Below, in pieces: positions 8,822-51,576 of a stretch of DNA of 57,087 nucleotides. The notes under the pieces are model-generated. The model was not told where the DNA came from. It saw nothing but the letters and a program-made list of their open reading frames with translations, and did no database searches. Position 1 is the first letter of the stretch, and each line of letters starts with the position of its first letter. Source of the stretch: a virus (Duplodnaviria; Heunggongvirae; Uroviricota; Caudoviricetes); the IMG/VR virus record IMGVR_UViG_2561511241_000005, positions 1 through 57,087 of that record; one strand, 5' to 3'. The translations under genes and the position numbers were made by a program.

Positions 8822-9011
8822 AGCGACACCGGGTTTTTAAAGAGCTTTTAAGGTATGTGCCTTTTTGTGCTTTCCATTATCTTTTTTCTTGCATCCTTGC
8901 AAGTATGGCCTTACCTTGTCTGCAAGTTTACAGAATGGAGTTTTAAGATCAAGGCTTGAAAAATACGTTTTGTGACTTGCGTCAAACTTTTTGAGGTTAT
9001 AGGGTAGCGAC
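8822..9011. promoter_or_regulatory. Divergent promoter/operator region between cro-position gene and CI-like repressor
   Basis: 190-bp intergenic region with repeated CTTGCA(AG) palindromic elements (8888-8927) and AT-rich promoter-like hexamers. Confidence 0.4.
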
Positions 9012-38020: not shown

Positions 38021-38701
38021 ATGATTCATGTTCGAACTGGACAATTTGCGGCTGTAGTCGATGGCAGGCGGTATGTATTTAATCCCTGTTTCGCCGCAAT
38101 GGCTAAGATCGGCAGTGACAGAGAACTGGTAGAATACTTCGCAACCATCCACGGTGGCAAATATCCATCACGATTGCCAGCAGATCCAGACCTACGCAAT
38201 CGCATTCTGGCGCGGTGTTATGGTGAGATAGTGCAAACGTCTATGCGCATCCTGAAATGTTGCTCAGAAGAGGAAACAGGGCCATTGCTTGGCGAATGCT
38301 GGTTTACTCCTTCTGGCAAGTTACGACTAAAACCCGGATTGATGCCTACTGATGACGTCATCACGCTTGCGCAGCATTGCATGTACCACGGTTTAATCGG
38401 TGATGGACCGGAAGAATACGCTGGAGAGATCCGGGAAGGTGAATATAAGCCGACATTTGACGTCCTTGAATTCGTTTATTCTGCCGTCGCTCACCTGGGA
38501 TTATCTGAATCAGAAGCATGGAATATGACAATGACCGGATATAGGGCCGCTGTGCGCGCTAAAACGCCGCCAGACGAAAGAAACGAGAGAAGCAAGCCAA
38601 ATGTTCACATAAATAAACGTGCTTATGATGAGCAAATGGAGGCCGCTAAAAAGGCACTGGAAAGAATGAAAAATCGCAAGCAAGAAAAAGCCCGGAATTA
38701 A
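38021..38701 (+). CDS. Putative tail assembly chaperone
   Basis: ATG 38021 with AGGGTGA RBS; position between major tail and tape-measure genes. Confidence 0.4.
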   Translation: MIHVRTGQFAAVVDGRRYVFNPCFAAMAKIGSDRELVEYFATIHGGKYPSRLPADPDLRNRILARCYGEIVQTSMRILKCCSEEETGPLLGECWFTPSGKLRLKPGLMPTDDVITLAQHCMYHGLIGDGPEEYAGEIREGEYKPTFDVLEFVYSAVAHLGLSESEAWNMTMTGYRAAVRAKTPPDERNERSKPNVHINKRAYDEQMEAAKKALERMKNRKQEKARN

Positions 38702-38715
38702 CCGGGCCTTTATTT

Positions 38716-39018
38716 TTATTTGTATGCTGCAAAGCGCCATCTTGCCTCTTCTAAATCATGGACTGTGTACACGTTATCGTAAAGATAAGTCGCGATCTGT
38801 GCTTTCTGTACGTCAGTTGCGTCAGAAAACTCCATGTTGACGAAAGTTAAAGCATCTATGTAGTGTTTAAACATCTTCTTGTTGACGCATAGGGCGTAAA
38901 TCAATACAGCAGGCCAACAAATCAGAGCGCCAATAAATGCAAGGAACATATTAAGATGTTTTTTCTCGGCTACAACCATAGTTACCACAAATCCAATAAA
39001 GAGAATTACTAGTTCCAT
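38716..39018 (-). CDS. membrane protein (opposite-strand cassette 1)
   Basis: 100 aa; two N-terminal TM helices; AAGGCGG RBS. Confidence 0.5.
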   Translation of the reverse strand: MELVILFIGFVVTMVVAEKKHLNMFLAFIGALICWPAVLIYALCVNKKMFKHYIDALTFVNMEFSDATDVQKAQIATYLYDNVYTVHDLEEARWRFAAYK

Positions 39019-39029
39019 GATGCACCGCC

Positions 39030-39137
39030 TTATTTACATTCGCCTTTTATTGTTAATGCCAGCACGAATACAGCCATTACATTAAAAGCCACCCATGCTG
39101 ATATATACACTTCTATGATGCTTTTGATGGTATCCAT
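39030..39137 (-). CDS. micro-ORF, 35-aa TM peptide (cassette 1)
   Basis: MDTIKSIIEVYISAWVAFNVMAVFVLALTIKGECK; GAGG RBS. Confidence 0.3.
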   Translation of the reverse strand: MDTIKSIIEVYISAWVAFNVMAVFVLALTIKGECK

Positions 39138-39148
39138 GTGCGCCTCGC

Positions 39149-39238
39149 TTAATTTTTGTTTTTAAGTGCTTTTAACATTTCTTCGATGAAGTCCGCATAG
39201 CGTTCATGTTCGTTGGGACGGTAGTTTACGTTTTTCAT
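39149..39238 (-). CDS. micro-ORF, 29-aa peptide (cassette 1)
   Basis: MKNVNYRPNEHERYADFIEEMLKALKNKN; AGAGGA RBS. Confidence 0.3.
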   Translation of the reverse strand: MKNVNYRPNEHERYADFIEEMLKALKNKN

Positions 39239-39487
39239 TTTCTTATCCTCTTTTGCTTCCTCCGGTTAATCCGGCCTTTTAAATCCCTTTGCTGTTTCCT
39301 TAGTTTTAGGGGTTTTCGCCTCCCTCGTTCCATCGGTTAGCTGTGCTTCAAGTCTTAATCCTTTATATCCTTCGACCTTCTTTTATCTCTCTCATCCTTC
39401 ACCTTCTTTATACAAAATGTATTCGTTGAAATGAAGCCATTTTGTATAAAATAGAGACATAGATCACATTTTGTATGAGGTTAAATC

Positions 39488-41827
39488 ATGGCTACCAGTG
39501 TAGGTACAATTTATTACGAGGTTGATGCAAAAACTGGTCAACTTCTCGTTGCACAACGACAGGCAGACCAGGCCTTTGACCGTATAGAGCGCGGCGCAAA
39601 ACAGGCTGACCGCCAGGTAAACACCCTGAAAACATCCATCAAAGCACTGACCAGGGTCATCCATCTGCTACTTGCTGCGGAAGCAGTGCGCCAATTTATG
39701 GATATGGCGGAACAAGCAAAAATGCTACGCGTAAAAATCAAAATGCTTACTGGCGATGCGGAGTCCGCCGGACGGGTTTTCGACGGCCTGAAAGCAATAT
39801 CGAAAGAAACAGGCCAGAGCCTGAAAGATACTGGCGAATTATGGCAAGGACTTGCCATCTCATTAAAAAACACATCCGCTACTGAAGGCCAGTTACTTAA
39901 CCTTGTTGGCACTATTCAGAAAATGGGGGCGTTAGGTGGTGCATCAGCGGAACAGATGTCTAACTCAATGCGCCAGTTCCGCCAGGCTATCGACGGCGGC
40001 GTACTCCGTGCTGAAGAATTCAACAGCCTTCTTGAGAACACCCCGACCATCGTACAGACAATGGCCCGCCAGATGGGATTATCAATGGGCCAGTTCCGCG
40101 CAGAAATGCTGGACGGCAAGATCACGGCTGAAAGGATGGTCAACGCGATCCAGGCGGCTACGCAGGAAACAAACGATAAGTTTGCTCAGTTGCCGCGCAC
40201 ATCCGGTACGGCTATCAATGAGCTTAAAGTAGAGATCATGGGCCTTGTTGAGCAGTTGGACGATCTTTTCGGCGTATCAGACGGCGTGGTATCAGCTATC
40301 GACTTAATCACGAAGGGCGTTAAAGGACTTGGCGAGGGCGCTAAATTCGCTAAAACATGCTTTGACACTCTCAAAACGGCTGGGAGTGAATTCATCGACA
40401 TGTTTGACGACGTTGCTGTTAAAGCTGGTGAGGTGGCGGAAGAGATCATTAGAATGGTAACGCCAATAAAAGCGCTAATGGATGGCTACAAATGGATGAA
40501 GGAAATTGTCGATAAACGCAAGGAAGAGCTAAACAGTAACAACGAGAAAAAATTCGGCCCTACCGTCGGCAAGGTCATGACGTTTGCAAACGATATTAAA
40601 AACGCGACTGCCGCTTATGATGAGTTCATGCAGAAACAGGGTGAGGCTAACGACGGCAAGATCACCGGATTCGATCAGCCAGTTGATAAGCCGAAAAAAC
40701 CGAAAAAAGAGAAGAAATCAGAAGCTGATCGGCTTGGTGACAAAGGCATAAGCGTTTCTGACCAGTACAACAAAGACGCCGCCGCCATGCGCAAAGCATT
40801 AGAGAACGGCAAGGCCATTGATGCTGCATTCGCCCAGGGTAAAATCACACTCCTTGAATACCGCGCCGCGCAAAAAGGGATCGGCAAAGAACTGAAGGAA
40901 GAATTAGCGCAAATCCCTGTAGATGAATTGCGTGATAAATGGTCGCAAATAGTTAGCCCGATGGACCAGCTAAAAGGCGAGGTTGACCCTATTCAGCAGG
41001 TACAGAATGAATGGGCCATTCGTAAGCAAATGCTTATCGACCTGGGGGCTACCGAAGCGCAACAGAAACAGGAATTGTTAGCCTATGAGCAACAGATCCG
41101 CGATCTGAAGTGGGAGCAGTGGCAAGCGCAAAGCGACACTAACGGCCTGATCGGTGATTGCGTTAATGGCCTTAAAGGTGGTATGAGCAATGCACTTGTT
41201 GGCCTGTTAAACGGTACTCAATCATTGAGCGATGTTTTTGCTAACTTAGGTAGCAATATCCTCGGCAATATTGGTAGCAGACTTTCAGATATAGCCGCTG
41301 ACTGGATAGCAGATCAAATCATGATGGAGACACAAAGCAAGGCCACGCAAGCAAGTACAACGGCGGGCGCGGTAGCGGCGCAAGGCCAGATTGCTGCGGC
41401 GGCGGCCCCGGCGGCGGCGGCAACAGCGGCGTCAACTGGCGGCGCATGGGCTGCGGCTGGTTCTGCGGCACTAACTGCGATCATGTCGCTGGCTACGTCA
41501 ATTTTCGGCGGTGGTCGCTTTAATGGTGGTAGCGTTATTGGTGGCAATATGTACCGCGTAGGGGAACATAACAGGCCGGAGCTATTCCAGACATCTAACG
41601 GAAATCAATATATGATCCCAGGCGAGAATGGCAGGGTTATTCCTGGGCGTGATATTGGCGGTGGCGTCGGCATTAGTATGCCTGTCAATATCAACATTCA
41701 GACCACAAACGGATTTAGCGACGAAGACAGTCGCAGACTTGAACAAACAATGGAACGTGTAGCAATGAAAATGATAACAAGGGAATCACAAAGACCAGGC
41801 GGAATATTGCAACCGCGCCGCAAATAA
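39488..41827 (+). CDS. Tail tape measure protein
   Basis: 779 aa; long alpha-helical protein with Gly/Ala-rich segment; position. Confidence 0.85.
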   Translation: MATSVGTIYYEVDAKTGQLLVAQRQADQAFDRIERGAKQADRQVNTLKTSIKALTRVIHLLLAAEAVRQFMDMAEQAKMLRVKIKMLTGDAESAGRVFDGLKAISKETGQSLKDTGELWQGLAISLKNTSATEGQLLNLVGTIQKMGALGGASAEQMSNSMRQFRQAIDGGVLRAEEFNSLLENTPTIVQTMARQMGLSMGQFRAEMLDGKITAERMVNAIQAATQETNDKFAQLPRTSGTAINELKVEIMGLVEQLDDLFGVSDGVVSAIDLITKGVKGLGEGAKFAKTCFDTLKTAGSEFIDMFDDVAVKAGEVAEEIIRMVTPIKALMDGYKWMKEIVDKRKEELNSNNEKKFGPTVGKVMTFANDIKNATAAYDEFMQKQGEANDGKITGFDQPVDKPKKPKKEKKSEADRLGDKGISVSDQYNKDAAAMRKALENGKAIDAAFAQGKITLLEYRAAQKGIGKELKEELAQIPVDELRDKWSQIVSPMDQLKGEVDPIQQVQNEWAIRKQMLIDLGATEAQQKQELLAYEQQIRDLKWEQWQAQSDTNGLIGDCVNGLKGGMSNALVGLLNGTQSLSDVFANLGSNILGNIGSRLSDIAADWIADQIMMETQSKATQASTTAGAVAAQGQIAAAAAPAAAATAASTGGAWAAAGSAALTAIMSLATSIFGGGRFNGGSVIGGNMYRVGEHNRPELFQTSNGNQYMIPGENGRVIPGRDIGGGVGISMPVNINIQTTNGFSDEDSRRLEQTMERVAMKMITRESQRPGGILQPRRK

Positions 41828-41858
41828 ACAAAGCCCCGGCATTGTGCCGGGGTTATCT
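41828..41858. terminator. Bidirectional rho-independent terminator
   Basis: CCCCGGCA-ttgt-GCCGGGG hairpin with T-rich flanks on both strands. Confidence 0.55.
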
Positions 41859-41859
41859 T

Positions 41860-42039
41860 TTATTCAATTTCATCATTTTTAAATTCGCCGTTTACATAAA
41901 GCTGTAATGCATTTATTAGTTCTGCGGCTTGCTTTTTATCTATTACGATCAATTCGCAGTCGCACTCAAGCCATAATCTTTCGTCATACTCAATGCTAAG
42001 AGTAATACGTCTGCATTCTTCCGTTTCGTTAATAATCAT
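41860..42039 (-). CDS. hypothetical acidic protein (cassette 2)
   Basis: ATG 42037-42039 with GGAG RBS; 59 aa. Confidence 0.45.
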   Translation of the reverse strand: MIINETEECRRITLSIEYDERLWLECDCELIVIDKKQAAELINALQLYVNGEFKNDEIE

Positions 42040-42077
42040 TATCAATCTCCACTGTGCTATTAATCACATAAATAAAT

Positions 42078-42248
42078 TTACTCAAAACTTGTATATCCTC
42101 TTTCAATTTTCCCGCCTCTTACACTTCTTGCAAATACTGCGTCAGTATGCTTGAAAAATGGTTCAGTATATGTGTCTCCTTTGCTATCCATCCATTTTAC
42201 GATCCAGGCCATACGTTTTACATTGCTTTTATTTGCCGGGTTTTTCAT
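42078..42248 (-). CDS. small hypothetical protein (cassette 2)
   Basis: about 56 aa; GGAGG RBS; hand-translated. Confidence 0.35.
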   Translation of the reverse strand: MKNPANKSNVKRMAWIVKWMDSKGDTYTEPFFKHTDAVFARSVRGGKIERGYTSFE

Positions 42249-42266
42249 TTTATTTTCCTCCGCAAA

Positions 42267-42359
42267 TTACAATCTTCCGTTTCTTGCTATGTAGCTGCGA
42301 GCAAACATCACTTGCCAGATGTTCCAGATCTCACGCCAGGTGAATTTATCGTCATTCAT
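42267..42359 (-). CDS. micro-ORF, 30 aa (cassette 2)
   Basis: MNDDKFTWREIWNIWQVMFARSYIARNGRL; GAGG RBS. Confidence 0.25.
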   Translation of the reverse strand: MNDDKFTWREIWNIWQVMFARSYIARNGRL

Positions 42360-42366
42360 ACCTACC

Positions 42367-42621
42367 TCACTTATGCGCACCTTTGACGCCGCAGTGCCTG
42401 TTATATTCAAGATGATCGATGATTAACCATACCTTGAGGTCTTCACTGAACAGCCGCCAATCAGGGTTGATGTCAAATTTAAAACCGTATCCGTCGCGTA
42501 ACTTTTTGGGGTGGGCTTCTTTCTTCAAAAATGCTTTAAGAAGTTCCTTGCCTTTCTTGATGATCCGGTCATGTGCGTTTTTCTGTGCTTTCAGGTTTTT
42601 GTCAATCGCTACCAGTTTCAT
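42367..42621 (-). CDS. hypothetical basic protein (cassette 2)
   Basis: 84 aa; AAGGGGGA RBS. Confidence 0.5.
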   Translation of the reverse strand: MKLVAIDKNLKAQKNAHDRIIKKGKELLKAFLKKEAHPKKLRDGYGFKFDINPDWRLFSEDLKVWLIIDHLEYNRHCGVKGAHK

Positions 42622-42788
42622 AACATCCCCCTTTGTGCAACGTCTTTCTTATTTGCTTTCTGTATACAATATGTGATTGCCAAAGTGAAGCCATTTTGAA
42701 AACTGGCTATAATCATTGTGATGAGGATCTCATTTTTCGCGTAGAATCGCGTAAAGGTATATACAAAATGTAACTTATAGGGGGATTT

Positions 42789-43142
42789 ATGCCTGAAGTG
42801 TTCCGATGGACACCACAAAGAAGCTACAGCGTAAACAGTGAGCCTAACGTGTCTGTCATTAAACTGGGTGATGGGTATGAACAGCGCCAGACAAAAGGGA
42901 TTAACCCTTTACTTGATAGCTATACGCTGGTCTTTAAAGGTACGAGCGCAGGATGCGGTGACGCCGGAAACGTAGCGCTACAGGTTGACGCATTTTTAAG
43001 AGCACGTTGCGCGGTCGAGGCGTTTTACTGGACCCCATCCACTGACGGGGTGCAAAGGCTTTTTGTATGCAGAAAGTGGAGCATGACGAAAGACGGCCCG
43101 GTATGCACTCTTAATGCAACGTTTGAACAAGTCGTCAATTAA
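42789..43142 (+). CDS. Minor tail protein M (lambda gpM-like)
   Basis: 117 aa; FRW near N-terminus, GDGY...Q motif and C-terminal FEQVVN as in lambda M. Confidence 0.8.
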   Translation: MPEVFRWTPQRSYSVNSEPNVSVIKLGDGYEQRQTKGINPLLDSYTLVFKGTSAGCGDAGNVALQVDAFLRARCAVEAFYWTPSTDGVQRLFVCRKWSMTKDGPVCTLNATFEQVVN

Positions 43143-43155
43143 TGGAGGTGTCAAT

Positions 43156-43341
43156 ATGTATGCTATTTGTGTAGTTGACCTCGCGGGCGCTTTTACATTG
43201 TTTGACGACTACGAGATCAACGACCTTACTGTAAAATCTGATAATGGTGAGACCTGGTATCTTCATGACATGGGCGACGGTTATGTTGGATGCAGATCAA
43301 GAGAAGGTAAGGAGGTCTTATTCTTACTTGACGGCGTATAA
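43156..43341 (+). CDS. hypothetical protein
   Basis: 61 aa; GGAGGTG RBS; followed by terminator. Confidence 0.45.
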   Translation: MYAICVVDLAGAFTLFDDYEINDLTVKSDNGETWYLHDMGDGYVGCRSREGKEVLFLLDGV

Positions 43342-43348
43342 ACACGAC

Positions 43349-43372
43349 CCCGCGCGAAGCGGGGTTTTACAT
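43349..43372. terminator. Rho-independent terminator
   Basis: CCCCGCGCGAAGCGGGG hairpin followed by TTTT. Confidence 0.55.
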
Positions 43373-43442
43373 TGTTGATAGCAGAATAAAAAATAATCCT
43401 ATTATTATAATAATCACTTCTAATATGTAGTGATCACACATA

Positions 43443-43691
43443 TCATAATGTTTCCCTTAAGTATGTTAACCCCTTATCAGTGACGAATGAGTGATTAACC
43501 TGGTTTTCATCCGTCATGATGATGAATAACTTTTCCTGTAGGTATTTCGCTTTTGGGTACAGTGTTAAACAGACCTGGTACAGTATCCCGCGCTCAATCA
43601 GCAAATCAATAAATTCGTGCTCATGATAACCGATGAGGCGGGCGGCCTGTTTCAACGTGTACACATAATCACCGTGATTGCGCCGCCCCAT
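43443..43691 (-). CDS. hypothetical protein, possible HTH (cassette 3)
   Basis: 82 aa from ATG 43689-43691. Confidence 0.45.
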   Translation of the reverse strand: MGRRNHGDYVYTLKQAARLIGYHEHEFIDLLIERGILYQVCLTLYPKAKYLQEKLFIIMTDENQVNHSFVTDKGLTYLRETL

Positions 43692-43696
43692 GATTT

Positions 43697-43936
43697 TTAT
43701 TCCCACGTTTCAAAAAATAGCATATCAGGCACAAAATCATCACCGCAAGCAGTTCCGTACCCTTTCACCCTTGTTCCAGAAATATCAAGCACTGTCAGCG
43801 GCACAAAGTTTAAACAGTTATCAACAGTAAAATAATTGCCAGAAGATGTTTTGAATAATGGGTATCTATCTTTTATATTAAAATCCCCCCTTTTGTTAGA
43901 TGTAACAACGAGTTTTATAATACCAATCATTTTCAT
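43697..43936 (-). CDS. hypothetical protein (cassette 3)
   Basis: 79 aa ORF. Confidence 0.45.
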   Translation of the reverse strand: MKMIGIIKLVVTSNKRGDFNIKDRYPLFKTSSGNYFTVDNCLNFVPLTVLDISGTRVKGYGTACGDDFVPDMLFFETWE

Positions 43937-43951
43937 ATATTGGCCTACTAT

Positions 43952-44305
43952 TTATTTGCCATTAAAACAGCCCAGGTTATCTATGCAGAAGTCTTTTGCC
44001 GCTTTTTCGTATTCGCGTTTTGCTTCTGGATCGTCTGCCGGGAAACCTTTTGCGTGTATTTCACCAGGGCAAGACTGATCCATAGAATCAGCAAATTCAA
44101 CATTGACGTTAAAGTTAATATCTTTCGGGTTCATCTCTTCCACCTTGTCCGGTACTTGGACCGGAGTAATATCAAAATCTCGAGCGTTAGACCAACAGCG
44201 AAGTAATTCGCGACCCTCATCACGCGCAGCTGTATATGTGTCAAATAGCCCCATGCTTTCCCATTCACATTTATCAGTCCACACGTCTAATCTGTATTTT
44301 TTCAT
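43952..44305 (-). CDS. hypothetical protein (cassette 3)
   Basis: 117 aa; GGGAGG RBS. Confidence 0.5.
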   Translation of the reverse strand: MKKYRLDVWTDKCEWESMGLFDTYTAARDEGRELLRCWSNARDFDITPVQVPDKVEEMNPKDINFNVNVEFADSMDQSCPGEIHAKGFPADDPEAKREYEKAAKDFCIDNLGCFNGK

Positions 44306-44477
44306 TTTTTGTTATAACCTCCCATTTGACAGGTTCGATCCTGTACCCCAAAACGCGTTCGTCTTCAGCGAGTAAGAGCGCGTCGGTAAGTGCCTCGCCT
44401 TCATCTTTATACAGGGCCACAGTCATTTCCCTGCCATCCGCAAGGAACACCGTCAACCTCCACACCTTATCATCCAT
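44274..44477 (-). CDS. hypothetical acidic protein (cassette 3)
   Basis: ATG 44475-44477 with GGAGGTG RBS. Confidence 0.4.
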   Translation of the reverse strand: MDDKVWRLTVFLADGREMTVALYKDEGEALTDALLLAEDERVLGYRIEPVKWEVITKNEKIQIRRVD

Positions 44478-44607
44478 ATCACACCTCCGCGCCATTTTGT
44501 TAACTGTGCTTCCGTTTGAGTAAAATATACATATTGTAAAAAGCGCGATCAACCATTTCGGTATGATTTAGCGTGACGCAGATCACAAAAAAGCGAAAGG
44601 TGATAAA

Positions 44608-45312
44608 ATGCGCAATATACCTACAGAGATGATTATTGATTCCGTGGACGCTGGTGTGGGCGCGGTGATTGACTTGTTCGAACTGGACTTGTCGCCCCTG
44701 GGTGGCGAGGTTATCCGCTTCCATTCCGGCGCGAATGGCTATTACGGCCCGGTTATCTGGAAGGGGGTAGCTTACAACAGCTACCCGATCGAGGCCACTG
44801 GCTTCGAAATGAAAAACGAAGGCGTTTATTCTCGGCCTCAAATGGTTGTAGCCAATATCGGCGGACTCATTACTGGGATGAATAACGATTTCAACGACCT
44901 AAGAGGCATGAAGGTTACACGCCGCCAGGTGGAAGTAAAATACCTGGACGCTGTTAACTTCCCTAACGGCAATCCAGATGCAGATCCATCTATTGAGGCT
45001 GTATCTTTTTACGTCGTTGAAGCAATGAGCGAGGAAACAGCGGATCAGGTGCAATATGAGCTGTCAACTCCAATTGATGCTGACAAGGCCGTTATCCCTG
45101 GGCGCACCATCCTTGCTGACGTTTGCCAGTGGCAATACAGAGGCGACGGTTGTATGTACGCTGGCGGACCAGTAGCAAACGATAAAGACGAGCCGACAAG
45201 CGATCCTAAAGCCGACAGATGCAGCCACCGCTTGAGCGGTTGTCGTTTACGTTTCCCGCGTCCAAATCCGTTACCAATTTCCTGTTTCCCTGGTTCCAGC
45301 AAGGTAGGTTAA
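44608..45312 (+). CDS. Minor tail protein L (lambda gpL-like)
   Basis: 234 aa; conserved CQWQYRGDGCMY cysteine cluster as in lambda L. Confidence 0.85.
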   Translation: MRNIPTEMIIDSVDAGVGAVIDLFELDLSPLGGEVIRFHSGANGYYGPVIWKGVAYNSYPIEATGFEMKNEGVYSRPQMVVANIGGLITGMNNDFNDLRGMKVTRRQVEVKYLDAVNFPNGNPDADPSIEAVSFYVVEAMSEETADQVQYELSTPIDADKAVIPGRTILADVCQWQYRGDGCMYAGGPVANDKDEPTSDPKADRCSHRLSGCRLRFPRPNPLPISCFPGSSKVG

Positions 45313-46046: not shown

Positions 46047-46519
46047 ACGTTGAAACGCCAGCGCAAGGACTTCGCTTATTGACCTCACAGAATCAGGAAT
46101 TCAAGAAGGCGTTTTTAAATACCCCATTGCGCTTGCGAATTGCCGGAAAAGATTATGACGAAAAGACCGCGCCCGCAGCGGTTAACAGTAAATACCCTGA
46201 CGGGACTACTGTCATTGTTGCGCCAGTGGTGGAAGGCGGTATTGCAGGAATTGGCGTTGTAGGCTGGATTTTGATCGGTGTTTCGGTTGTTAGCGTTGCG
46301 TTCTCGATCTTTATGTCTCGCAACATGAAGATAAAAACATCAGCAGAAAGCGCACAAGATAACACCATATCTAATAACACCTACACCAGCGTTGAAAACA
46401 AGGTAGGCCAGGGTAGACCAGTGCCGATCCTATTGGGTGAAATGAAAATAGGTTCAAACGTCGGATCGTTAGGCATAGACACAAGTAATAACAAAGACGC
46501 CTTAGACGTTGTAAGTTAA
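45989..46519 (+). CDS. Tail assembly protein I (lambda gpI-like)
   Basis: 176 aa; RIAGKD and QGRPVPILLGEMKIGS resemble lambda I; overlaps K as in lambda. Confidence 0.8.
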   Translation: MLKFRFTGNLRRYYSKVCLNVETPAQGLRLLTSQNQEFKKAFLNTPLRLRIAGKDYDEKTAPAAVNSKYPDGTTVIVAPVVEGGIAGIGVVGWILIGVSVVSVAFSIFMSRNMKIKTSAESAQDNTISNNTYTSVENKVGQGRPVPILLGEMKIGSNVGSLGIDTSNNKDALDVVS

Positions 46520-46533
46520 CAGGAGAAAAGGCC

Positions 46534-49500
46534 ATGAGTAGCGGCGGCGGCAAAGCCAAAACACCAACATTATTAAACGATAACCTGTATCATAAACAGT
46601 TTTATCGTGTTTTAGACATTCTCAGCGAGGGGCCGATATACGGCCCGGTAAACCAGAAAGCGCCATTAAACAGCGTAATGCTTAATGACACACCTGTAAC
46701 TGACGCGAACGGAAATACATCAATCCCGGGGATTAGTATAGCCTGGCGCAATGGCACGGCTGACCAATCGCCGATTAATGGTTTTAACGCTATCGAATCA
46801 ACAGTTATTGTCAACGCAAAGGTAACTCACGATACGCCAATAATCAGGACTGTTTCAGATCCAAACGTTAACCGCGTAAGGCTGAATGTTGGCGTTGATG
46901 CTCTCGTTCAGTCAGATGATAAGGGCAATCAATATAACACGTCAGTCATGTTAATGGTTGATGTTAAGCCATCATCATCATCTACGTGGTCGCTGGTTAA
47001 AAACATTACAATCGGGCCTGGTAAACAGAGTGGTGAATACCTTGAAGCTCACGTTATCAACGCGCCGGATGAAAAGCCGTTTGATATTCGCGTTCGTCGC
47101 GTAACGCCAGACAGCAAAAGCGATCTTCTTCGTAATGATACGCGGTGGAGCAGTTACAGCGAGATAATCGACGATAACCTGTCTTACCCTCATACCGCTG
47201 TAGCTGGCGCGGTAATTGACCATGACCAGTATACTGATACTCCTACCCGCACCTATCACCTGCGTGGGCTGATTGTTGATGTGCCGGACAACTATAACCC
47301 TGAAACGCGCGCGTATTCCGGTTTATGGCTTGGTGGCTTTAAAAAAGCGTATACCAATAACCCTGCATGGCTTTTCCGGTATCTGGTTAAAAATGAACGT
47401 TTCGGACTTGCTCGCCACGCTGGTTACATTGACGTTGACGACGGCGCATTATATACGCTTTCTCAATACTGTGACCAGTTGGTTGATGATGGCTACGGTG
47501 GCCTTGAGCCTCGCATGACGCTTAACGCTTACATCACAGAGCAAATGAGCGCACGCGACTTACTGGACAATATCGCCGGGATGTTCAGGGGTATCGCATT
47601 ATGGGACGGGCAACGCCTTACCGTGATGATTGATGCACCACAAGACCCGATCGCCACCATTACAAATGCAAACGTCGTTGATGGCGAGTTTACTCGTTCA
47701 AGTATCGCCCGCGCAGAATGCTACAACGCAGTGATCGTATCATGGACTGACCCGGAAAACGGATGGGAGCAATCAAAAGAGTATGTGGCAGACGATGAGC
47801 TGATCGCCCGTGATGGTTACAACGAAACCACGTTAGAGGCGTTCGGGTGCACATCACGCGGGCAAGCATACCGCGCGGGCAAGTGGCTGATAGAAACAGC
47901 AAAACGCGAGCCGTCAAAATTCACGTTTAAAATGGCCCGTGACGCGATTCACTTTACGCCAGGGGATATTATCGAGATACTCGACAATAACCGCGCAGGC
48001 GCTCGTTTAGGCGGTCGCATCGTGGCGAACAATGGCAAGGTGATAACGGTCGATAAGGTTGATTCGGAATACATCACCGCAGGCGATACCATTAGTTTGC
48101 TTGATAGTGATGGCAAATTTAAGAAACACCAGATCACCGGGGTGAGCGGAAACAAAATCACACTGGCGGCGGCCCCGTCATGGATTCGAAACGGCACTGT
48201 TTTTGCTGTATCGACTGAATCTGCAAAACCTGTTCTGTGTCGAATTATCAGCGTGGCAGAAACAGAAAATAATAGCGTGTACACCATCGAGGCCGCACAG
48301 CACGACCAAAACAAGCAAGCTGTAGTCGATGAAGGCGCAATCTTTGAGGTCAACAACGACACGCTTAATCACTTCCGCGTGCCGAACATTGAAAACCTGA
48401 AGGTGTTAAATGTTGGTTCTGAAACTGTTCAATGTCGCGCTACATGGGAAACACAGACGACAACGCATCGCCTGACCTTTGAGATCCGCGTATATAACGA
48501 CGAAGGCCGCGTGGTGGCAGCTTATGAAACAACGAATTACCGCTATGATTTTTATGGCCTCGACGCTGGCAGCTACACGCTTGGTATTCGCGGGCGTAAT
48601 GACACTGGCATGAAGGGTGCGGAAAGTATTGTGGATCTGGTTATTGGTGCGCCAGCGGCCCCGATTGGAGTCAATTGGGTTTCCGGCGTCTTCCAGGCAA
48701 CGGTATATCCGATCAGCAAAACAACCCTGACCACTGATACAGCATACGAGTTTTATTACTCAGGTGAAAACCAGATCACAGACCCATCAAAAGTAACCAC
48801 GCTGGCGCAATTCACCGGGCGCGGATACCAATGGACTTTTGGCGGCATGAACACGGGCCATAAATATTACGTTTATGTGCGCACGCGTAACGCTTTCGGT
48901 GTGTCAGACTTCGTTGAGGCATCAGGCAAACCTACAGAAAACTTCGACGAAATCAGCGACTACGTGATGAAGGATGTCATGGAGTCAGAACAGTTTAAGG
49001 ACATGATTGGCGATATTAAAGATCTTGGCGACCGTGCCGACCTTATCGAAAGCGCTACCAATGACCTTAAGACTGCTACTGACAACCTCAAAACTGCAAC
49101 TGATAACCTGACAAACATCACTGACGAATTGAGGGTTGACACGGACAACCTGACAAACATCACTGACGAATTGAGGACTGATACGGACGGCCTAATCACA
49201 GAAACTGGGGCCATAAAAGCTGACACGGACACACTGAAAAAAGAAACGGAAGATCTCTATAAAAAGGTTGAGGAAAACGCCGACGATATTGGACAGCATG
49301 AGGCAAGAATAGATTCTCTTGAGGTATCTAGCGAAAAAGTTGGCAGTGAACTGGCGCAAGCAAAAGCAAGCCTGCAAAACGCGTCATTGGCGCTTATCAA
49401 TAACTCACTTGCACAGACCAACACGCGGGTTACTCTCACCGCTCAGTACAAGAAAGGTAGGACAGAAACGAAGGCCGAAATTGACCGCATTGACAACGTT

Positions 49501-51576
49501 ATTGCTGAAGAGAAAAAGGCAACGGCTGAATCACTGAAAACCATCACGGCAGAAATGAACACGATGGATTCTAACCTCAAAGGTCAGATCTCAAACGTGG
49601 AACACGCAGTGGCTGACGAGGCCAGCGCCCGCGCTGAAGCCATTAACGGTGTGAATGCTTCAATAGGCAATCTCGACAAGAAAACCGACGCCAGCATCAA
49701 TAGACTTGATCAAGCTATTGCAGACGAAACGAACGCCCGCACACAGGCAGTCAGTGACGTTAACGCGAGTATCTCATCGCTCGACAAGAAAACAGACGCC
49801 AGCGTTAAACGCTTGGATCAAGCAATAGCAGACGAAACCAGTGCAAGAACTGAAGCTATCAGCAGTGTTAACGCCTCAATAAACAGCATTGACACTAAGG
49901 TTACAAGCAACGTAACACGTATTGATAAAGCCATCGCAGACGAAACGAAGGCACGCACAGACGCGATCAGCGGCGTCAAAGCAAGTATTGACACACTTGA
50001 AGGTAACACCAATTCAGAAGTTAAACGCCTGGACCAGGCAATTTCTGACGAGGCCAGCGCACGCAGCCAGGCGGTGAGCGATGTTAAAGCGTCAATAAGC
50101 AATCTTGAAAGCAAAACTGACGCAAGTGTTTCCCGTCTCGACAAGGCTATCGCTGACGAAACACAGGCAAGAAGCGCTGCAATAACAGATGTTAAGGCTG
50201 ATTTGACAACGCTCGAAAACAGCACAAACGCCAGCGTCAAACGACTTGATCAGGCGATTGCCGACGAATCAAGCGCACGCGCTGAAGCAATCTCAGGCAT
50301 TAACGCAGAGATCGGCAGCATTGAAAACAACGTTGACAAAAACAGCGATGATATAAATCAGACCAAAGCAAGCCTGCAAAACGCTTCGATTGCGCTTATT
50401 AATAACTCAATCGCTCAAACCAACACTCGCGTTACCCTTACGGCCCAGTACAAGAAAGGTCGCAAGGAAACAAACGCGCAGATTGATCGTATTGACAGCG
50501 TTATCGCTGAAGAGAAAAAGGCTACAGCCGAAGCAATTGGCGTGGTAAAAGCATCGATCACGGATCTCGACAAGAAAACCAACGCCAGCGTTTCACGTCT
50601 CGATAAGGCCATTGCAGACGAAACCAACGCACGCAGCGAGTCAATCAGCGGTGTTAACGCAAGCATTAACACGCTTGAAAGCAACACAGAATCAGAGGTT
50701 AGCAGACTGGACCAGGCAATTGCTGACGAGGCAAGCGCCAGAGCACAAGCCATCAGTGGCGTGAATGCGTCAATTTCAACCCTTGATGGCAAAGTTACAA
50801 GCAACGTGACCCGTATCGACAAGGCCATCGCTGACGAAACGAAGGCCCGCACTGACGCGATAAGTAGTCTTAACTCATCGCTTACCAGTACGATTAATTC
50901 GAAAGTATCTGAAGTATCCACAGCACTTTCTACGCATGAAGCATCAAGCGCGGAAAAATTCAACCAGATCTCAGCGTCTTTCGAAGCGGTAAACTCAAGC
51001 ATCACAGAATGGTCGCAGACCATGACAACGGCGGACGAGGCATTATCAACCAAAATTGATCAGCTGACAGTGACCGTTAACGGGAACACCACGGCGATCG
51101 AGACAACATCTAAAGCGTTAACCGACTTCAAAGGTAACGTTGATGCGTCATTGTCAATCAAGATTGCCACCGACAACAACGGCATGAAATACGCAACAGG
51201 TATGTCACTTGGCCTGACTGGTAGCGGTACTAACGTTCAATCGCAGTGTATTTTCCTTGTTGACCGCTTCGTGTTAATGACTGCGGCAAACGGCACATAT
51301 ACAACGCCTTTCTATGTGTCTAATGGTGCAATGTATGTGAAAGAAGCGTTTATTAAAGACGCCTCGATCACTAACGCGAAAATAGGTTCATACATCCAGT
51401 CAAATAACTATGTTTCCGGCAGCACTGGCTGGAAACTGGATAAATCAGGGACGTTTGAAAACTATGGCGCGGTAAGTGGCGAAGGTGCAATGAAATTAAC
51501 TAATACCACTATCTCGGTAAAAGACGGCAACGGGCGTTTACGCGTACAAATTGGTAGGATTACAGGATCATGGTAG
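46534..51576 (+). CDS. Central tail fibre / host specificity protein J-like with long repetitive coiled-coil insertion
   Basis: 1680 aa; N-terminal 800 aa align with lambda J (LSEGPIYGPV, FGCTSRGQAYRAGKWL); internal 36-aa repeats. Confidence 0.9.
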   Translation: MSSGGGKAKTPTLLNDNLYHKQFYRVLDILSEGPIYGPVNQKAPLNSVMLNDTPVTDANGNTSIPGISIAWRNGTADQSPINGFNAIESTVIVNAKVTHDTPIIRTVSDPNVNRVRLNVGVDALVQSDDKGNQYNTSVMLMVDVKPSSSSTWSLVKNITIGPGKQSGEYLEAHVINAPDEKPFDIRVRRVTPDSKSDLLRNDTRWSSYSEIIDDNLSYPHTAVAGAVIDHDQYTDTPTRTYHLRGLIVDVPDNYNPETRAYSGLWLGGFKKAYTNNPAWLFRYLVKNERFGLARHAGYIDVDDGALYTLSQYCDQLVDDGYGGLEPRMTLNAYITEQMSARDLLDNIAGMFRGIALWDGQRLTVMIDAPQDPIATITNANVVDGEFTRSSIARAECYNAVIVSWTDPENGWEQSKEYVADDELIARDGYNETTLEAFGCTSRGQAYRAGKWLIETAKREPSKFTFKMARDAIHFTPGDIIEILDNNRAGARLGGRIVANNGKVITVDKVDSEYITAGDTISLLDSDGKFKKHQITGVSGNKITLAAAPSWIRNGTVFAVSTESAKPVLCRIISVAETENNSVYTIEAAQHDQNKQAVVDEGAIFEVNNDTLNHFRVPNIENLKVLNVGSETVQCRATWETQTTTHRLTFEIRVYNDEGRVVAAYETTNYRYDFYGLDAGSYTLGIRGRNDTGMKGAESIVDLVIGAPAAPIGVNWVSGVFQATVYPISKTTLTTDTAYEFYYSGENQITDPSKVTTLAQFTGRGYQWTFGGMNTGHKYYVYVRTRNAFGVSDFVEASGKPTENFDEISDYVMKDVMESEQFKDMIGDIKDLGDRADLIESATNDLKTATDNLKTATDNLTNITDELRVDTDNLTNITDELRTDTDGLITETGAIKADTDTLKKETEDLYKKVEENADDIGQHEARIDSLEVSSEKVGSELAQAKASLQNASLALINNSLAQTNTRVTLTAQYKKGRTETKAEIDRIDNVIAEEKKATAESLKTITAEMNTMDSNLKGQISNVEHAVADEASARAEAINGVNASIGNLDKKTDASINRLDQAIADETNARTQAVSDVNASISSLDKKTDASVKRLDQAIADETSARTEAISSVNASINSIDTKVTSNVTRIDKAIADETKARTDAISGVKASIDTLEGNTNSEVKRLDQAISDEASARSQAVSDVKASISNLESKTDASVSRLDKAIADETQARSAAITDVKADLTTLENSTNASVKRLDQAIADESSARAEAISGINAEIGSIENNVDKNSDDINQTKASLQNASIALINNSIAQTNTRVTLTAQYKKGRKETNAQIDRIDSVIAEEKKATAEAIGVVKASITDLDKKTNASVSRLDKAIADETNARSESISGVNASINTLESNTESEVSRLDQAIADEASARAQAISGVNASISTLDGKVTSNVTRIDKAIADETKARTDAISSLNSSLTSTINSKVSEVSTALSTHEASSAEKFNQISASFEAVNSSITEWSQTMTTADEALSTKIDQLTVTVNGNTTAIETTSKALTDFKGNVDASLSIKIATDNNGMKYATGMSLGLTGSGTNVQSQCIFLVDRFVLMTAANGTYTTPFYVSNGAMYVKEAFIKDASITNAKIGSYIQSNNYVSGSTGWKLDKSGTFENYGAVSGEGAMKLTNTTISVKDGNGRLRVQIGRITGSW
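49105..49188 (+). repeat. 42-bp perfect-to-near-perfect tandem duplication inside J
   Basis: aacctgacaaacatcactgacgaattgagg(g/a)(t/c)tga(c/t)acggac twice. Confidence 0.8.
49577..50890 (+). repeat. Array of about 11 in-frame 108-bp (36-aa) repeats plus a duplicated 170-bp block (49363-49533 and 50364-50532)
   Basis: Repeated LDKKTDASVxRLDQAIADETxARxxAISxVNASIxx units visible in translation and DNA. Confidence 0.8.

Follow-up and report, generated by a model that had tools for sequence, protein, structure and literature searches.

In the concept of Hendrix and Juhala, which PMC2629481 quotes, a moron of the lambdoid phages is a gene added to the late genes as a unit of its own, complete with promoter and terminator. 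The tail genes M and L are adjacent in lambda; in the DNA studied here they are separated by a cassette of four genes on the opposite strand (positions 43443-44477), which is our subject. That DNA, called the window below, is the full 57,087 nucleotides (nt) of IMG/VR virus record IMGVR_UViG_2561511241_000005 (Caudoviricetes). A well-described parallel is the 'ant moron' of the P22-like phages (immunity I: mnt-arc-ant-sar, sieA and others), a variable, independently expressed and non-morphogenetic block in the late operon by the tailspike gene, which has evolved by insertion and deletion around what looks like one ancestral insertion, and which is thought to modulate read-through into the tail gene (PMC2629481). 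No morons occur elsewhere in the morphogenetic clusters of these phages (PMC2629481).

One gene of the cassette belongs to the ANT/KilAC family. The antirepressors Ant1 and Ant2 of P1 and P7 contain this domain, and the isolated ANT/KilAC domain of AriS from Listeria phage phi10403S, when overexpressed, is enough to suppress the SOS response, probably at RecA (PMC9043618). The closest phages belong to the mEpimmI group, that is mEp021, its mEp relatives and MagusPhagus, which are Nus-dependent, non-lambdoid temperate coliphages and mostly not UV-inducible; manual analysis placed a KilAC-like antirepressor among the core genes of all 48 mEpimmI genomes, and beyond this core gene the same paper has nothing on the cassette genes, promoters or operators of the region (PMC11893012). 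In E. coli from the human gut, mEpimmI phages reportedly equal lambdoid phages in frequency; little is known about how they are regulated.

The region under study has ~86% nucleotide identity to Enterobacteria phages mEp021 and mEp010/013/044/515/554 and to Escherichia phage MagusPhagus. A 325-kb contig in an NCBI E. coli assembly encodes ORF-B, the 117-aa protein of the cassette, residue for residue and with the same four genes in the same order, and for this reason we take the window to be a prophage. The orthologs in mEp021 are mEp021_71-74, annotated as a 'putative antirepressor' and three hypothetical proteins.

With moderate confidence, we read the cassette as the M-L moron of the mEpimmI phages, an autonomous leftward operon whose role would be regulatory or host-modulating and not structural. 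The original prediction, made from the letters of the window, had proposed four minus-strand ORFs of 67, 117, 79 and 82 aa between gpM and gpL, and its coordinates and sizes were right (ORF-A to ORF-D in leftward order; Table 1). As it had also said, the cassette is coding, interrupts the M-L-K-I-J series on the opposite strand, and is one of three such blocks in the tail module (the other two at about 38716-39333 and 41860-42621). GC skew is negative over 43400-44600 and positive across the flanking tail genes. A-D lie on the minus strand in all relatives, and searches of Pfam, PHROGs and NCBIfam gave them no tail, structural or lysis family match, whereas M and L match their lambda-type tail families. 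It is this lack of structural matches, together with a prophage that bears a natural deletion of the cassette (below), that leads us to the non-structural reading. As expected of a moron, the cassette has a promoter-like site and a terminator of its own, recognized at the sequence level and both conserved in relatives, and gene sets differ among related phages. As a conserved, probably non-structural mEpimmI operon, it is of a known kind (the moron) and already sequenced and annotated in GenBank.

The 13 loci that we compared comprise the window, six phages and six prophages of E. coli. Every one of them has the order M-X-terminator-D-(C)-B-A-L (X is a small plus-strand gene described below), and all 7 sequenced mEpimmI phages have the cassette in the same slot. 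Among 5426 complete E. coli genomes, 34 have a gpL of this type; a cassette query matches the same 34, and 33 of them carry the cassette. The single genome in which gpM is directly followed by gpL is that of E. coli MS 21-1 (NZ_CP146670.1, 2541856-2541979), where a 1.1-kb deletion has removed ORFs D-B-A together with X and the terminator. The two ends meet at a TTGTTA microhomology shared by the X start region and the 5' untranslated region of ORF-A, and the control/promoter region is kept; because this conserved region is still present, the M-L junction is a secondary deletion.

The cassette genes are under purifying selection. Pooled pairwise ratios of nonsynonymous to synonymous divergence (pN/pS; Nei-Gojobori counts, 12 loci, with three sequences for ORF-C) are 0.13 for D, 0.37 for A and 0.43 for C, and within ORF-B they go from 0.42 (residues 1-57) through 0.30 (58-75) to 0.11 (76-115); the flanking genes have 0.11 (M) and 0.055 (L). 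The reading frames of the four ORFs are kept in 12-13 related loci. The cassette genes and their neighbors M and L show similar synonymous divergence (pS 0.31-0.54 and 0.40-0.47, respectively), and the cassette has therefore co-diverged with the tail genes. By these comparisons it appears to be an old, ancestral and lineage-defining accessory operon, remodelled at its edges, and no recent insertion.

ORF-D (82 aa from its ATG, 87 aa from an upstream GTG) matches the ANT/KilAC profile PF03374 above threshold, over profile positions 23-105 of 108 (E=3.6e-7, 30.9 bits, gathering cut-off 25.3). The helix-turn-helix (HTH) fold at first suspected in this protein is thus accounted for: it has an HTH-like segment, and the HTH-type domain is KilAC. 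The sequence is 89-96% identical in 12 relatives, and its orthologs go by the RefSeq/GenBank names 'putative antirepressor' and 'phage antirepressor KilAC domain-containing protein'. Outside the group, the nearest tblastn matches are the C-terminal parts of larger Ant/Rha-type proteins from Vibrio, Cronobacter and Hafnia phages (32-41% identity); a PDB sequence search yielded no related solved structure. The usual two-domain antirepressor architecture is absent, with no N-terminal AntA/AntB, Bro-N, pRha or KilA-N domain and KilAC standing alone. We suggest that ORF-D would act like the KilAC half of antirepressor and AriS proteins, by binding a repressor, a RecA/SOS component or DNA. The effect of KilAC on SOS in Listeria, the one lead with an experimental footing, and the report that mEpimmI phages are mostly not UV-inducible are our grounds for favoring a regulatory or host-modulating role.

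ORF-B (pI 4.6) has 57 homolog clusters, all from E. coli or phages. A domain search had been proposed for this 117-aa protein, and it led to no informative family: there was no match in Pfam, NCBIfam or PADLOC, PHROGs gave a family of unknown function, and Pfam gave no informative domain also at E up to 5 over 40 B and 30 A homologs. The alignment falls into an N-half (1-57) that comes in several very different types and a near-invariant C-half (58-117; ..ADSMDQSCPGEIHAKGFPADDPEAKREYEKAAKDFCIDNL..), whose invariance includes two Cys and one His. In the AlphaFold2 (AF2) model, residues 1-50 fold as beta-beta-alpha-beta with a predicted local distance difference test score (pLDDT) >90, and the C-half scores <60, with one helix. 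Constraint at the DNA level was considered as the cause of the invariant C-half and rejected, synonymous divergence there being ordinary (pS 0.37).

The C-half is an independent unit, acidic and 60 aa long, which we call the C-module. A profile search against 1.8 billion representatives returned just 15 matches, so remote homology was unhelpful; it did show stand-alone 56-aa proteins that start exactly at the position of Met58. One such free-standing homolog (P0113) comes from an unrelated phage that has a Mu-type portal, where its neighbors are small genes, and a full-length ORF-B homolog lies amid small acidic proteins on another unrelated phage-like contig. In E. coli MFDS1019527 the N-half of ORF-B has two stop codons and the C-half ORF is intact. 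Met58 itself is nearly invariant, and at every locus it is preceded at 5-7 nt by the Shine-Dalgarno (SD)-like AGGTGGA/GAGGTGG, even in a distant homolog with different residues there. The internal SD, Met58, the stand-alone homologs and the MFDS1019527 allele together make it likely that a nested in-frame product of 60 aa (43952-44134) is translated from this internal start.

ORF-A begins at an ATG 6 nt after GGAGGTG, and its product is acidic (pI 4.8), as had been noted. It has 49 homolog clusters, with 74-98% identity within the main type. Its AF2 model (pLDDT 80) again has the order beta-beta-alpha-beta, with element boundaries nearly those of the ORF-B N-domain, and hhalign aligned ORF-A end-to-end with the N-half of ORF-B over 46 columns (P=9.5e-4, 22% probability). 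The shared fold order and the profile alignment favor paralogy; ORF-A and the ORF-B N-domain are therefore probably distant paralogs. The 3' end of ORF-A overlaps the start of ORF-B by 32 nt; many relatives have an ORF-A of 51 aa that does not reach ORF-B. RefSeq calls the ORF-A orthologs 'transporter', a name that we reject, since these proteins of 51-67 aa are acidic and soluble and lack hydrophobic segments; this label is probably a propagated misannotation.

Database searches place few of these proteins. NCBIfam has no model that matches any cassette protein, PADLOC-DB 2.0 gave no match at E up to 0.1 for 8 cassette proteins, and PHROGs offers A, B and C nothing beyond families of 'unknown function'. 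A BFVD fold search returned uncharacterised mini-proteins, DUF7336 and DUF2188 at marginal E-values. We envision ORF-A and ORF-B as small binding proteins, in which the variable N-domains would track a variable partner while the invariant C-module would engage a constant one; the cassette as a whole would encode small, soluble, non-virion proteins.

Three separate insertions into one tail module had been taken to imply a hot spot for the acquisition of accessory genes, and this idea fared differently in different parts of the locus. ORF-C, with a GC content of 34.6%, is present in 3 of the 13 loci (window, mEp021 and E. coli FAH) and missing from the other 10; it has 5 protein clusters in 5.8 billion, always in this slot, and no family match in Pfam, PHROGs, NCBIfam or PADLOC searches. 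ORF-A is replaced by an unrelated basic ORF of 52 aa in two prophages and strongly diverged in a third, some prophages (L019-L022) have a fifth gene of 67 aa after D, and ORF-B N-domain types are shuffled among relatives. The other two slots have cargo of very different kinds. Between tape measure and M, a conserved ParE-like gene of 84 aa stands beside variable cargo (mEp021 has zinc-ribbon genes, mEp013 a 1.3-kb gene and mEp515 an HNH gene). Before the tape measure, the window has two predicted membrane proteins (100 aa and 35 aa), mEp021 and MagusPhagus have a 138-aa signal-peptide protein, and MS 21-1 has a T6SS-associated, TagO-like gene; in this first antisense cassette (38716-39333, minus strand) the spacer and a 29-aa ORF next to the promoter show 86-94% conservation. 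The hot-spot idea thus holds at the level of the whole module and at the cassette edges (C, A, the fifth gene, the B N-types), and fails for the conserved core (D and the ORF-B C-module).

The region upstream of ORF-A had been remarked on as 'motif-containing' (44490-44595), and it is indeed a highly conserved divergent spacer, with blocks that stay invariant throughout the 13 loci, those with a replaced ORF-A included. A consensus scan gave a leftward sigma-70-like promoter candidate, with a predicted start near 44517, and a rightward candidate whose -10 overlaps the leftward -10; both hexamer pairs are conserved in relatives. Across the -10 regions lies an 11-bp palindrome of the family TACAWWWTGTA. 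Six perfect sites of this family occur in the window (6279, 10454, 13862, 39411, 42762, 44528) against 0.18 expected: each cassette spacer has one, the others are in the early region, and three positions are conserved in mEp021. A related 12-mer, TATACAAAATGT, has 22 sites against 7.8 expected (among them 9771, 17483, 23723, 39437, 39466 and 42663), and the sites of both palindromes are nearly all intergenic. TACAWWWTGTA, which goes unmentioned in PMC11893012, is a candidate operator of a phage regulator.

The spacer also contains a CRP-like palindrome whose half-sites are invariant while the bases between them vary in the 13 loci; its center lies about 62 bp ahead of the predicted start of leftward transcription. 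With at most one mismatch to TGTGA-N6-TCACA, the window has 8 sites against 1.59 expected, a number that 0 of 100 shuffles reach; they lie at 8971, 10009, 13840, 17436, 42053, 42717, 44572 and 52906, all between genes and often adjoining TACAWWWTGTA. At two mismatches or fewer the motif is unenriched (28 sites, 23.7 expected). All three cassette spacers have CRP-like sites about 60-70 bp upstream of their predicted leftward starts. These palindromes could be sites for the host CRP or a phage operator.

An element of ~40 nt (TATACAWWWTGT-N13-AASCCATTTYG) is common to all three cassette spacers (the others at 39404-39444 and 42658-42698). On the minus strand we would read it as a -35 hexamer, 17 bp and a -10 hexamer in each of the three. 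The three antisense cassettes are probably co-regulated through this shared promoter/palindrome element. No rightward promoter common to the three spacers could be defined by eye, and an Rfam scan of 38500-45000 had no match.

From these parts a mechanism can be sketched. Transcription of the cassette would start at the sigma-70-like site in the spacer before gpL and end at the hairpin behind gpM and gpX, which would stop both the M-X transcript and the leftward one. Late (Q-dependent) transcription would then have to pass the hairpin and run antisense through the cassette to reach L-K-I-J. Given where they lie, the terminator and convergent transcription may gate the read-through of late transcripts into these four genes, and a similar effect has been proposed for the P22 ant moron. 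The shared element offers a handle on how antisense accessory genes are made compatible with late transcription. A bolder extension, which we regard as a long shot, makes one regulon of the three cassettes, under a phage factor at TACAWWWTGTA and cAMP-CRP at TGTGA-N6-TCACA, and puts the M-L cassette at its regulatory center, with a KilAC-only protein that damps RecA/SOS or repressor inactivation and works alongside the nested ORF-B pair and ORF-A. If this were true, the KilAC-only protein would account for the reported lack of UV induction in most mEpimmI prophages, and a newly recognized, gut-prevalent phage family would have a second center of immunity and induction control inside its tail genes. 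Should the KilAC-only protein control SOS or the inactivation of a repressor, it would matter for how prophages are induced in the gut and be the smallest natural version of a widespread, poorly understood antirepressor domain.

Other accounts of the cassette differ in how real, how old and how useful they take its genes to be. We practically discount a non-coding region with chance ORFs, or a misreading of plus-strand tail genes, two outcomes that the original prediction had itself allowed for. The ORFs are small and the SD sequences before ORF-B and ORF-C weak, but the frames are conserved in 12-13 loci with pN/pS well below 1 (0.11-0.43), the proteins have hundreds of database members, confident AF2 folds and a Pfam domain in D, the plus-strand ORFs of the interval are unsupported, no Rfam family is present, and every relative has A-D on the minus strand, without a tail family. 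Quite improbable, too, is the view that an acquisition hot spot took up the three blocks independently and recently, the M-L cassette being new and confined to this prophage or a few relatives. The varying edges (C optional, A replaceable, a fifth gene in some) and the very different cargo of the other two slots would suit it. For the M-L cassette it nevertheless seems largely refuted, and with it the separate insertion first envisaged, by an identical backbone in 13/13 loci and 33/34 genomes, by a KilAC gene that is core to the 48-genome group, by a pS of D and B like that of M and L, and by the secondary deletion that made the sole 'empty' site. A toxin-antitoxin or addiction module, with A and B as an overlapping pair and ORF-D as transcriptional regulator, is highly improbable: the 32-nt overlap resembles that of many coupled pairs and a ParE-like gene lies in the adjacent cassette, but Pfam, NCBIfam and PADLOC have no toxin or antitoxin family, type II domains included, for A-D, A and the B N-domain appear to share one fold, many relatives have a 51-aa A that does not overlap B, and A can be replaced or the B N-half pseudogenised while the rest of the cassette is retained.

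Two further accounts concern when the operon would act, and for whom. It is possible, though unlikely, that this is an early lytic operon for host takeover or anti-defence, switched on right after infection or induction, ahead of the late transcription that comes from the opposite side, in which A, B and the C-module inhibit host defences or enzymes and ORF-D inactivates the repressors of resident prophages. A and B are small soluble proteins of acidic pI (4.6-4.8) with no enzymatic domain, the highly variable N-half and invariant C-half of B look like an arms-race interface, unrelated phages have homologs of B and the C-module in arrays of small genes that share a strand, and the BFVD fold matches are many uncharacterised phage proteins of 50-70 aa. 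Against it, no known anti-defence protein was matched, and the variable half has a pN/pS of 0.42, not >1; its variation looks like the swapping of types rather than point-wise positive selection. An operon expressed from the prophage for defence or superinfection exclusion, transcribed in the lysogen to the benefit of the host, is unlikely as well. Its own promoter-like site and terminator, the low-GC optional cargo (ORF-C), the ParE-like toxin-domain gene in the neighboring cassette and a CRP-like site at a position typical of class I activation would fit this, and the group carries exclusion lipoproteins elsewhere (PMC11893012). Yet no cassette protein has a PADLOC match, and membrane and secretion signals are absent, as are nuclease, NTPase and other effector-type domains. 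The proteins are also tiny, and D is conserved essentially lineage-wide and A in most loci (replaced in 2/13), which is unusual for defence cargo.

Several points also weigh against the autonomous regulatory moron that we prefer. The leftward promoter is a sequence match to 9 of 12 consensus positions, the rightward site overlaps it, and the promoter scan was unenriched, with 15 promoter-like sites found against 12.3 expected in shuffles. ORF-D lacks the N-terminal domain that all characterised antirepressor/AriS proteins have, and the Listeria KilAC is no more than a distant relative. The paralogy of A and B draws on an HHalign probability of 22% and a shared topology. The near-universal presence of the cassette in its lineage, finally, fits a function in the life cycle better than a dispensable moron of lysogenic conversion.

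Left of the cassette, the original prediction missed gpX, a conserved plus-strand gene between gpM and the terminator. Its mechanical ORF starts at 43114, and the alignments of relatives begin at residues 12-13. It is present in 13/13 loci (pN/pS 0.20) and annotated as a 186-nt CDS in mEp021 and relatives; lambda is not known to have a gene at this position. gpX is acidic, and in E. coli MS 21-1 it is gone along with the cassette. The terminator said to bound the cassette is there as a G+C-rich hairpin at 43347-43365; mEp021 has terminators TERM_11/12 annotated on both strands at the homologous position, and ARNold predicts one at the homologous position in mEp013/044/515/554.

Table 1. Features of the M-L interval and its flanks (window coordinates)
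Feature	Position	Strand	Basis or remark
gpM, minor tail protein, left flank	42789-43142	+	Pfam Phage_min_tail PF05939, E=4.6e-29
gpX, 61 aa from the Met after GGAGGTG	43156-43341	+	phrog_3249, E=2.5e-20
Bidirectional intrinsic-terminator hairpin, ACCCCGC-GCGAA-GCGGGGT	43347-43365		terminator scan
ORF-D, 82 aa, ANT/KilAC domain only	43443-43691	-	PF03374; phrog_5689
ORF-C, 79 aa, optional	43697-43936	-	no family match
ORF-B, 117 aa, acidic, two-part	43952-44305	-	phrog_38567
Probable nested in-frame ORF-B product, C-module, 60 aa from Met58	43952-44134	-	
ORF-A, 67 aa, acidic, first gene of operon	44274-44477	-	phrog_29559
Divergent control region, 130 bp, between ORF-A and gpL	44478-44607		conserved blocks
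Rightward promoter candidate, TTGTTA-18-TAAAAT	44497-44526	+	-10 overlaps leftward -10
Leftward sigma-70-like promoter candidate, TTGATC-17-TATATT	44524-44552	-	consensus scan; predicted start near 44517
11-bp palindrome TACATATTGTA (family TACAWWWTGTA), candidate operator	44528-44538		across promoter -10 regions
CRP-like palindrome, CGTGA-N6-TCACA	44572-44587		centred about 62 bp upstream of predicted leftward start
gpL, minor tail protein L, right flank	44608-45312	+	Pfam Phage_tail_L PF05100, E=4e-72

Other peculiarities of the tail module were seen in passing: (i) The ParE-like gene of the window (42367-42621, minus strand; PF24732, E=6e-11) lacks the 51-aa gene (mEp021_68, WP_001329613) found in front of it in relatives, while its control region (spacer 42622-42788) is kept, so that it is apparently an orphan toxin-domain gene. 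(ii) An HNH endonuclease gene lies between gpI and gpJ in mEp021 and not in the window (46519-46534); with the HNH gene of mEp515, this suggests that homing-type genes also populate the tail module. (iii) gpJ (46534-51576, plus strand, 1680 aa) has at about 49100-50500 a run of similar ~30-residue segments (..KRLDQAIADE[TA]xAR[TS][EQ]AISxVNASI..), which suggest a repetitive coiled-coil or fibre region and may underlie the 'centrosome-associated protein' annotation in PMC11893012.

The nearest counterparts of the cassette are mEp021_71-74 and the equivalents in mEp010/013/044/515/554 and MagusPhagus, direct orthologs in identical order, with protein identities of 81-96% for D, B and A and 75% for C. 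Among the sequenced phages ORF-C is in mEp021 only, and the ORF-A of the window is a long (67-aa) C-terminal variant, unlike its mEp-group equivalents. ORF-D matches, above threshold, the Pfam family PF03374 to which AriS and the Ant1 and Ant2 of P1 and P7 belong; it differs from AriS in its remote similarity, in its length (82 aa against about 115 aa for the Listeria domain construct) and in the position of its gene in a tail module.

Like the classical lambdoid moron, the cassette is, by its predicted promoter and terminator, an autonomous unit, set between two late genes that adjoin each other in other phages, with partly deviant base composition and variable cargo. It differs in having four genes instead of one, in occurring in essentially every member of its lineage, and in including two genes under selection as strong as that on M (pN/pS 0.11-0.13 against 0.11). 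As for the controllers of P22 immunity I, no RHH/Mnt/Arc-type or other regulator family was found in A, B or C, and no sar-like RNA by Rfam over 38500-45000. With the ant moron the cassette has in common that it is a (probably) non-morphogenetic block in the late operon by tail genes, that its content is remodelled by insertions and deletions, and that it contains an antirepressor-family gene, as the P22 type often does. Here, however, that member is an 82-aa KilAC domain alone, and the cassette lies wholly on the opposite strand between M and L in a lambda-like siphovirus tail cluster. The original prediction had called three such blocks in one tail module highly unusual, and the comparison bears this out: P22-like phages have their morons at one location (PMC2629481), and the mEpimmI-type tail module of the window has three.

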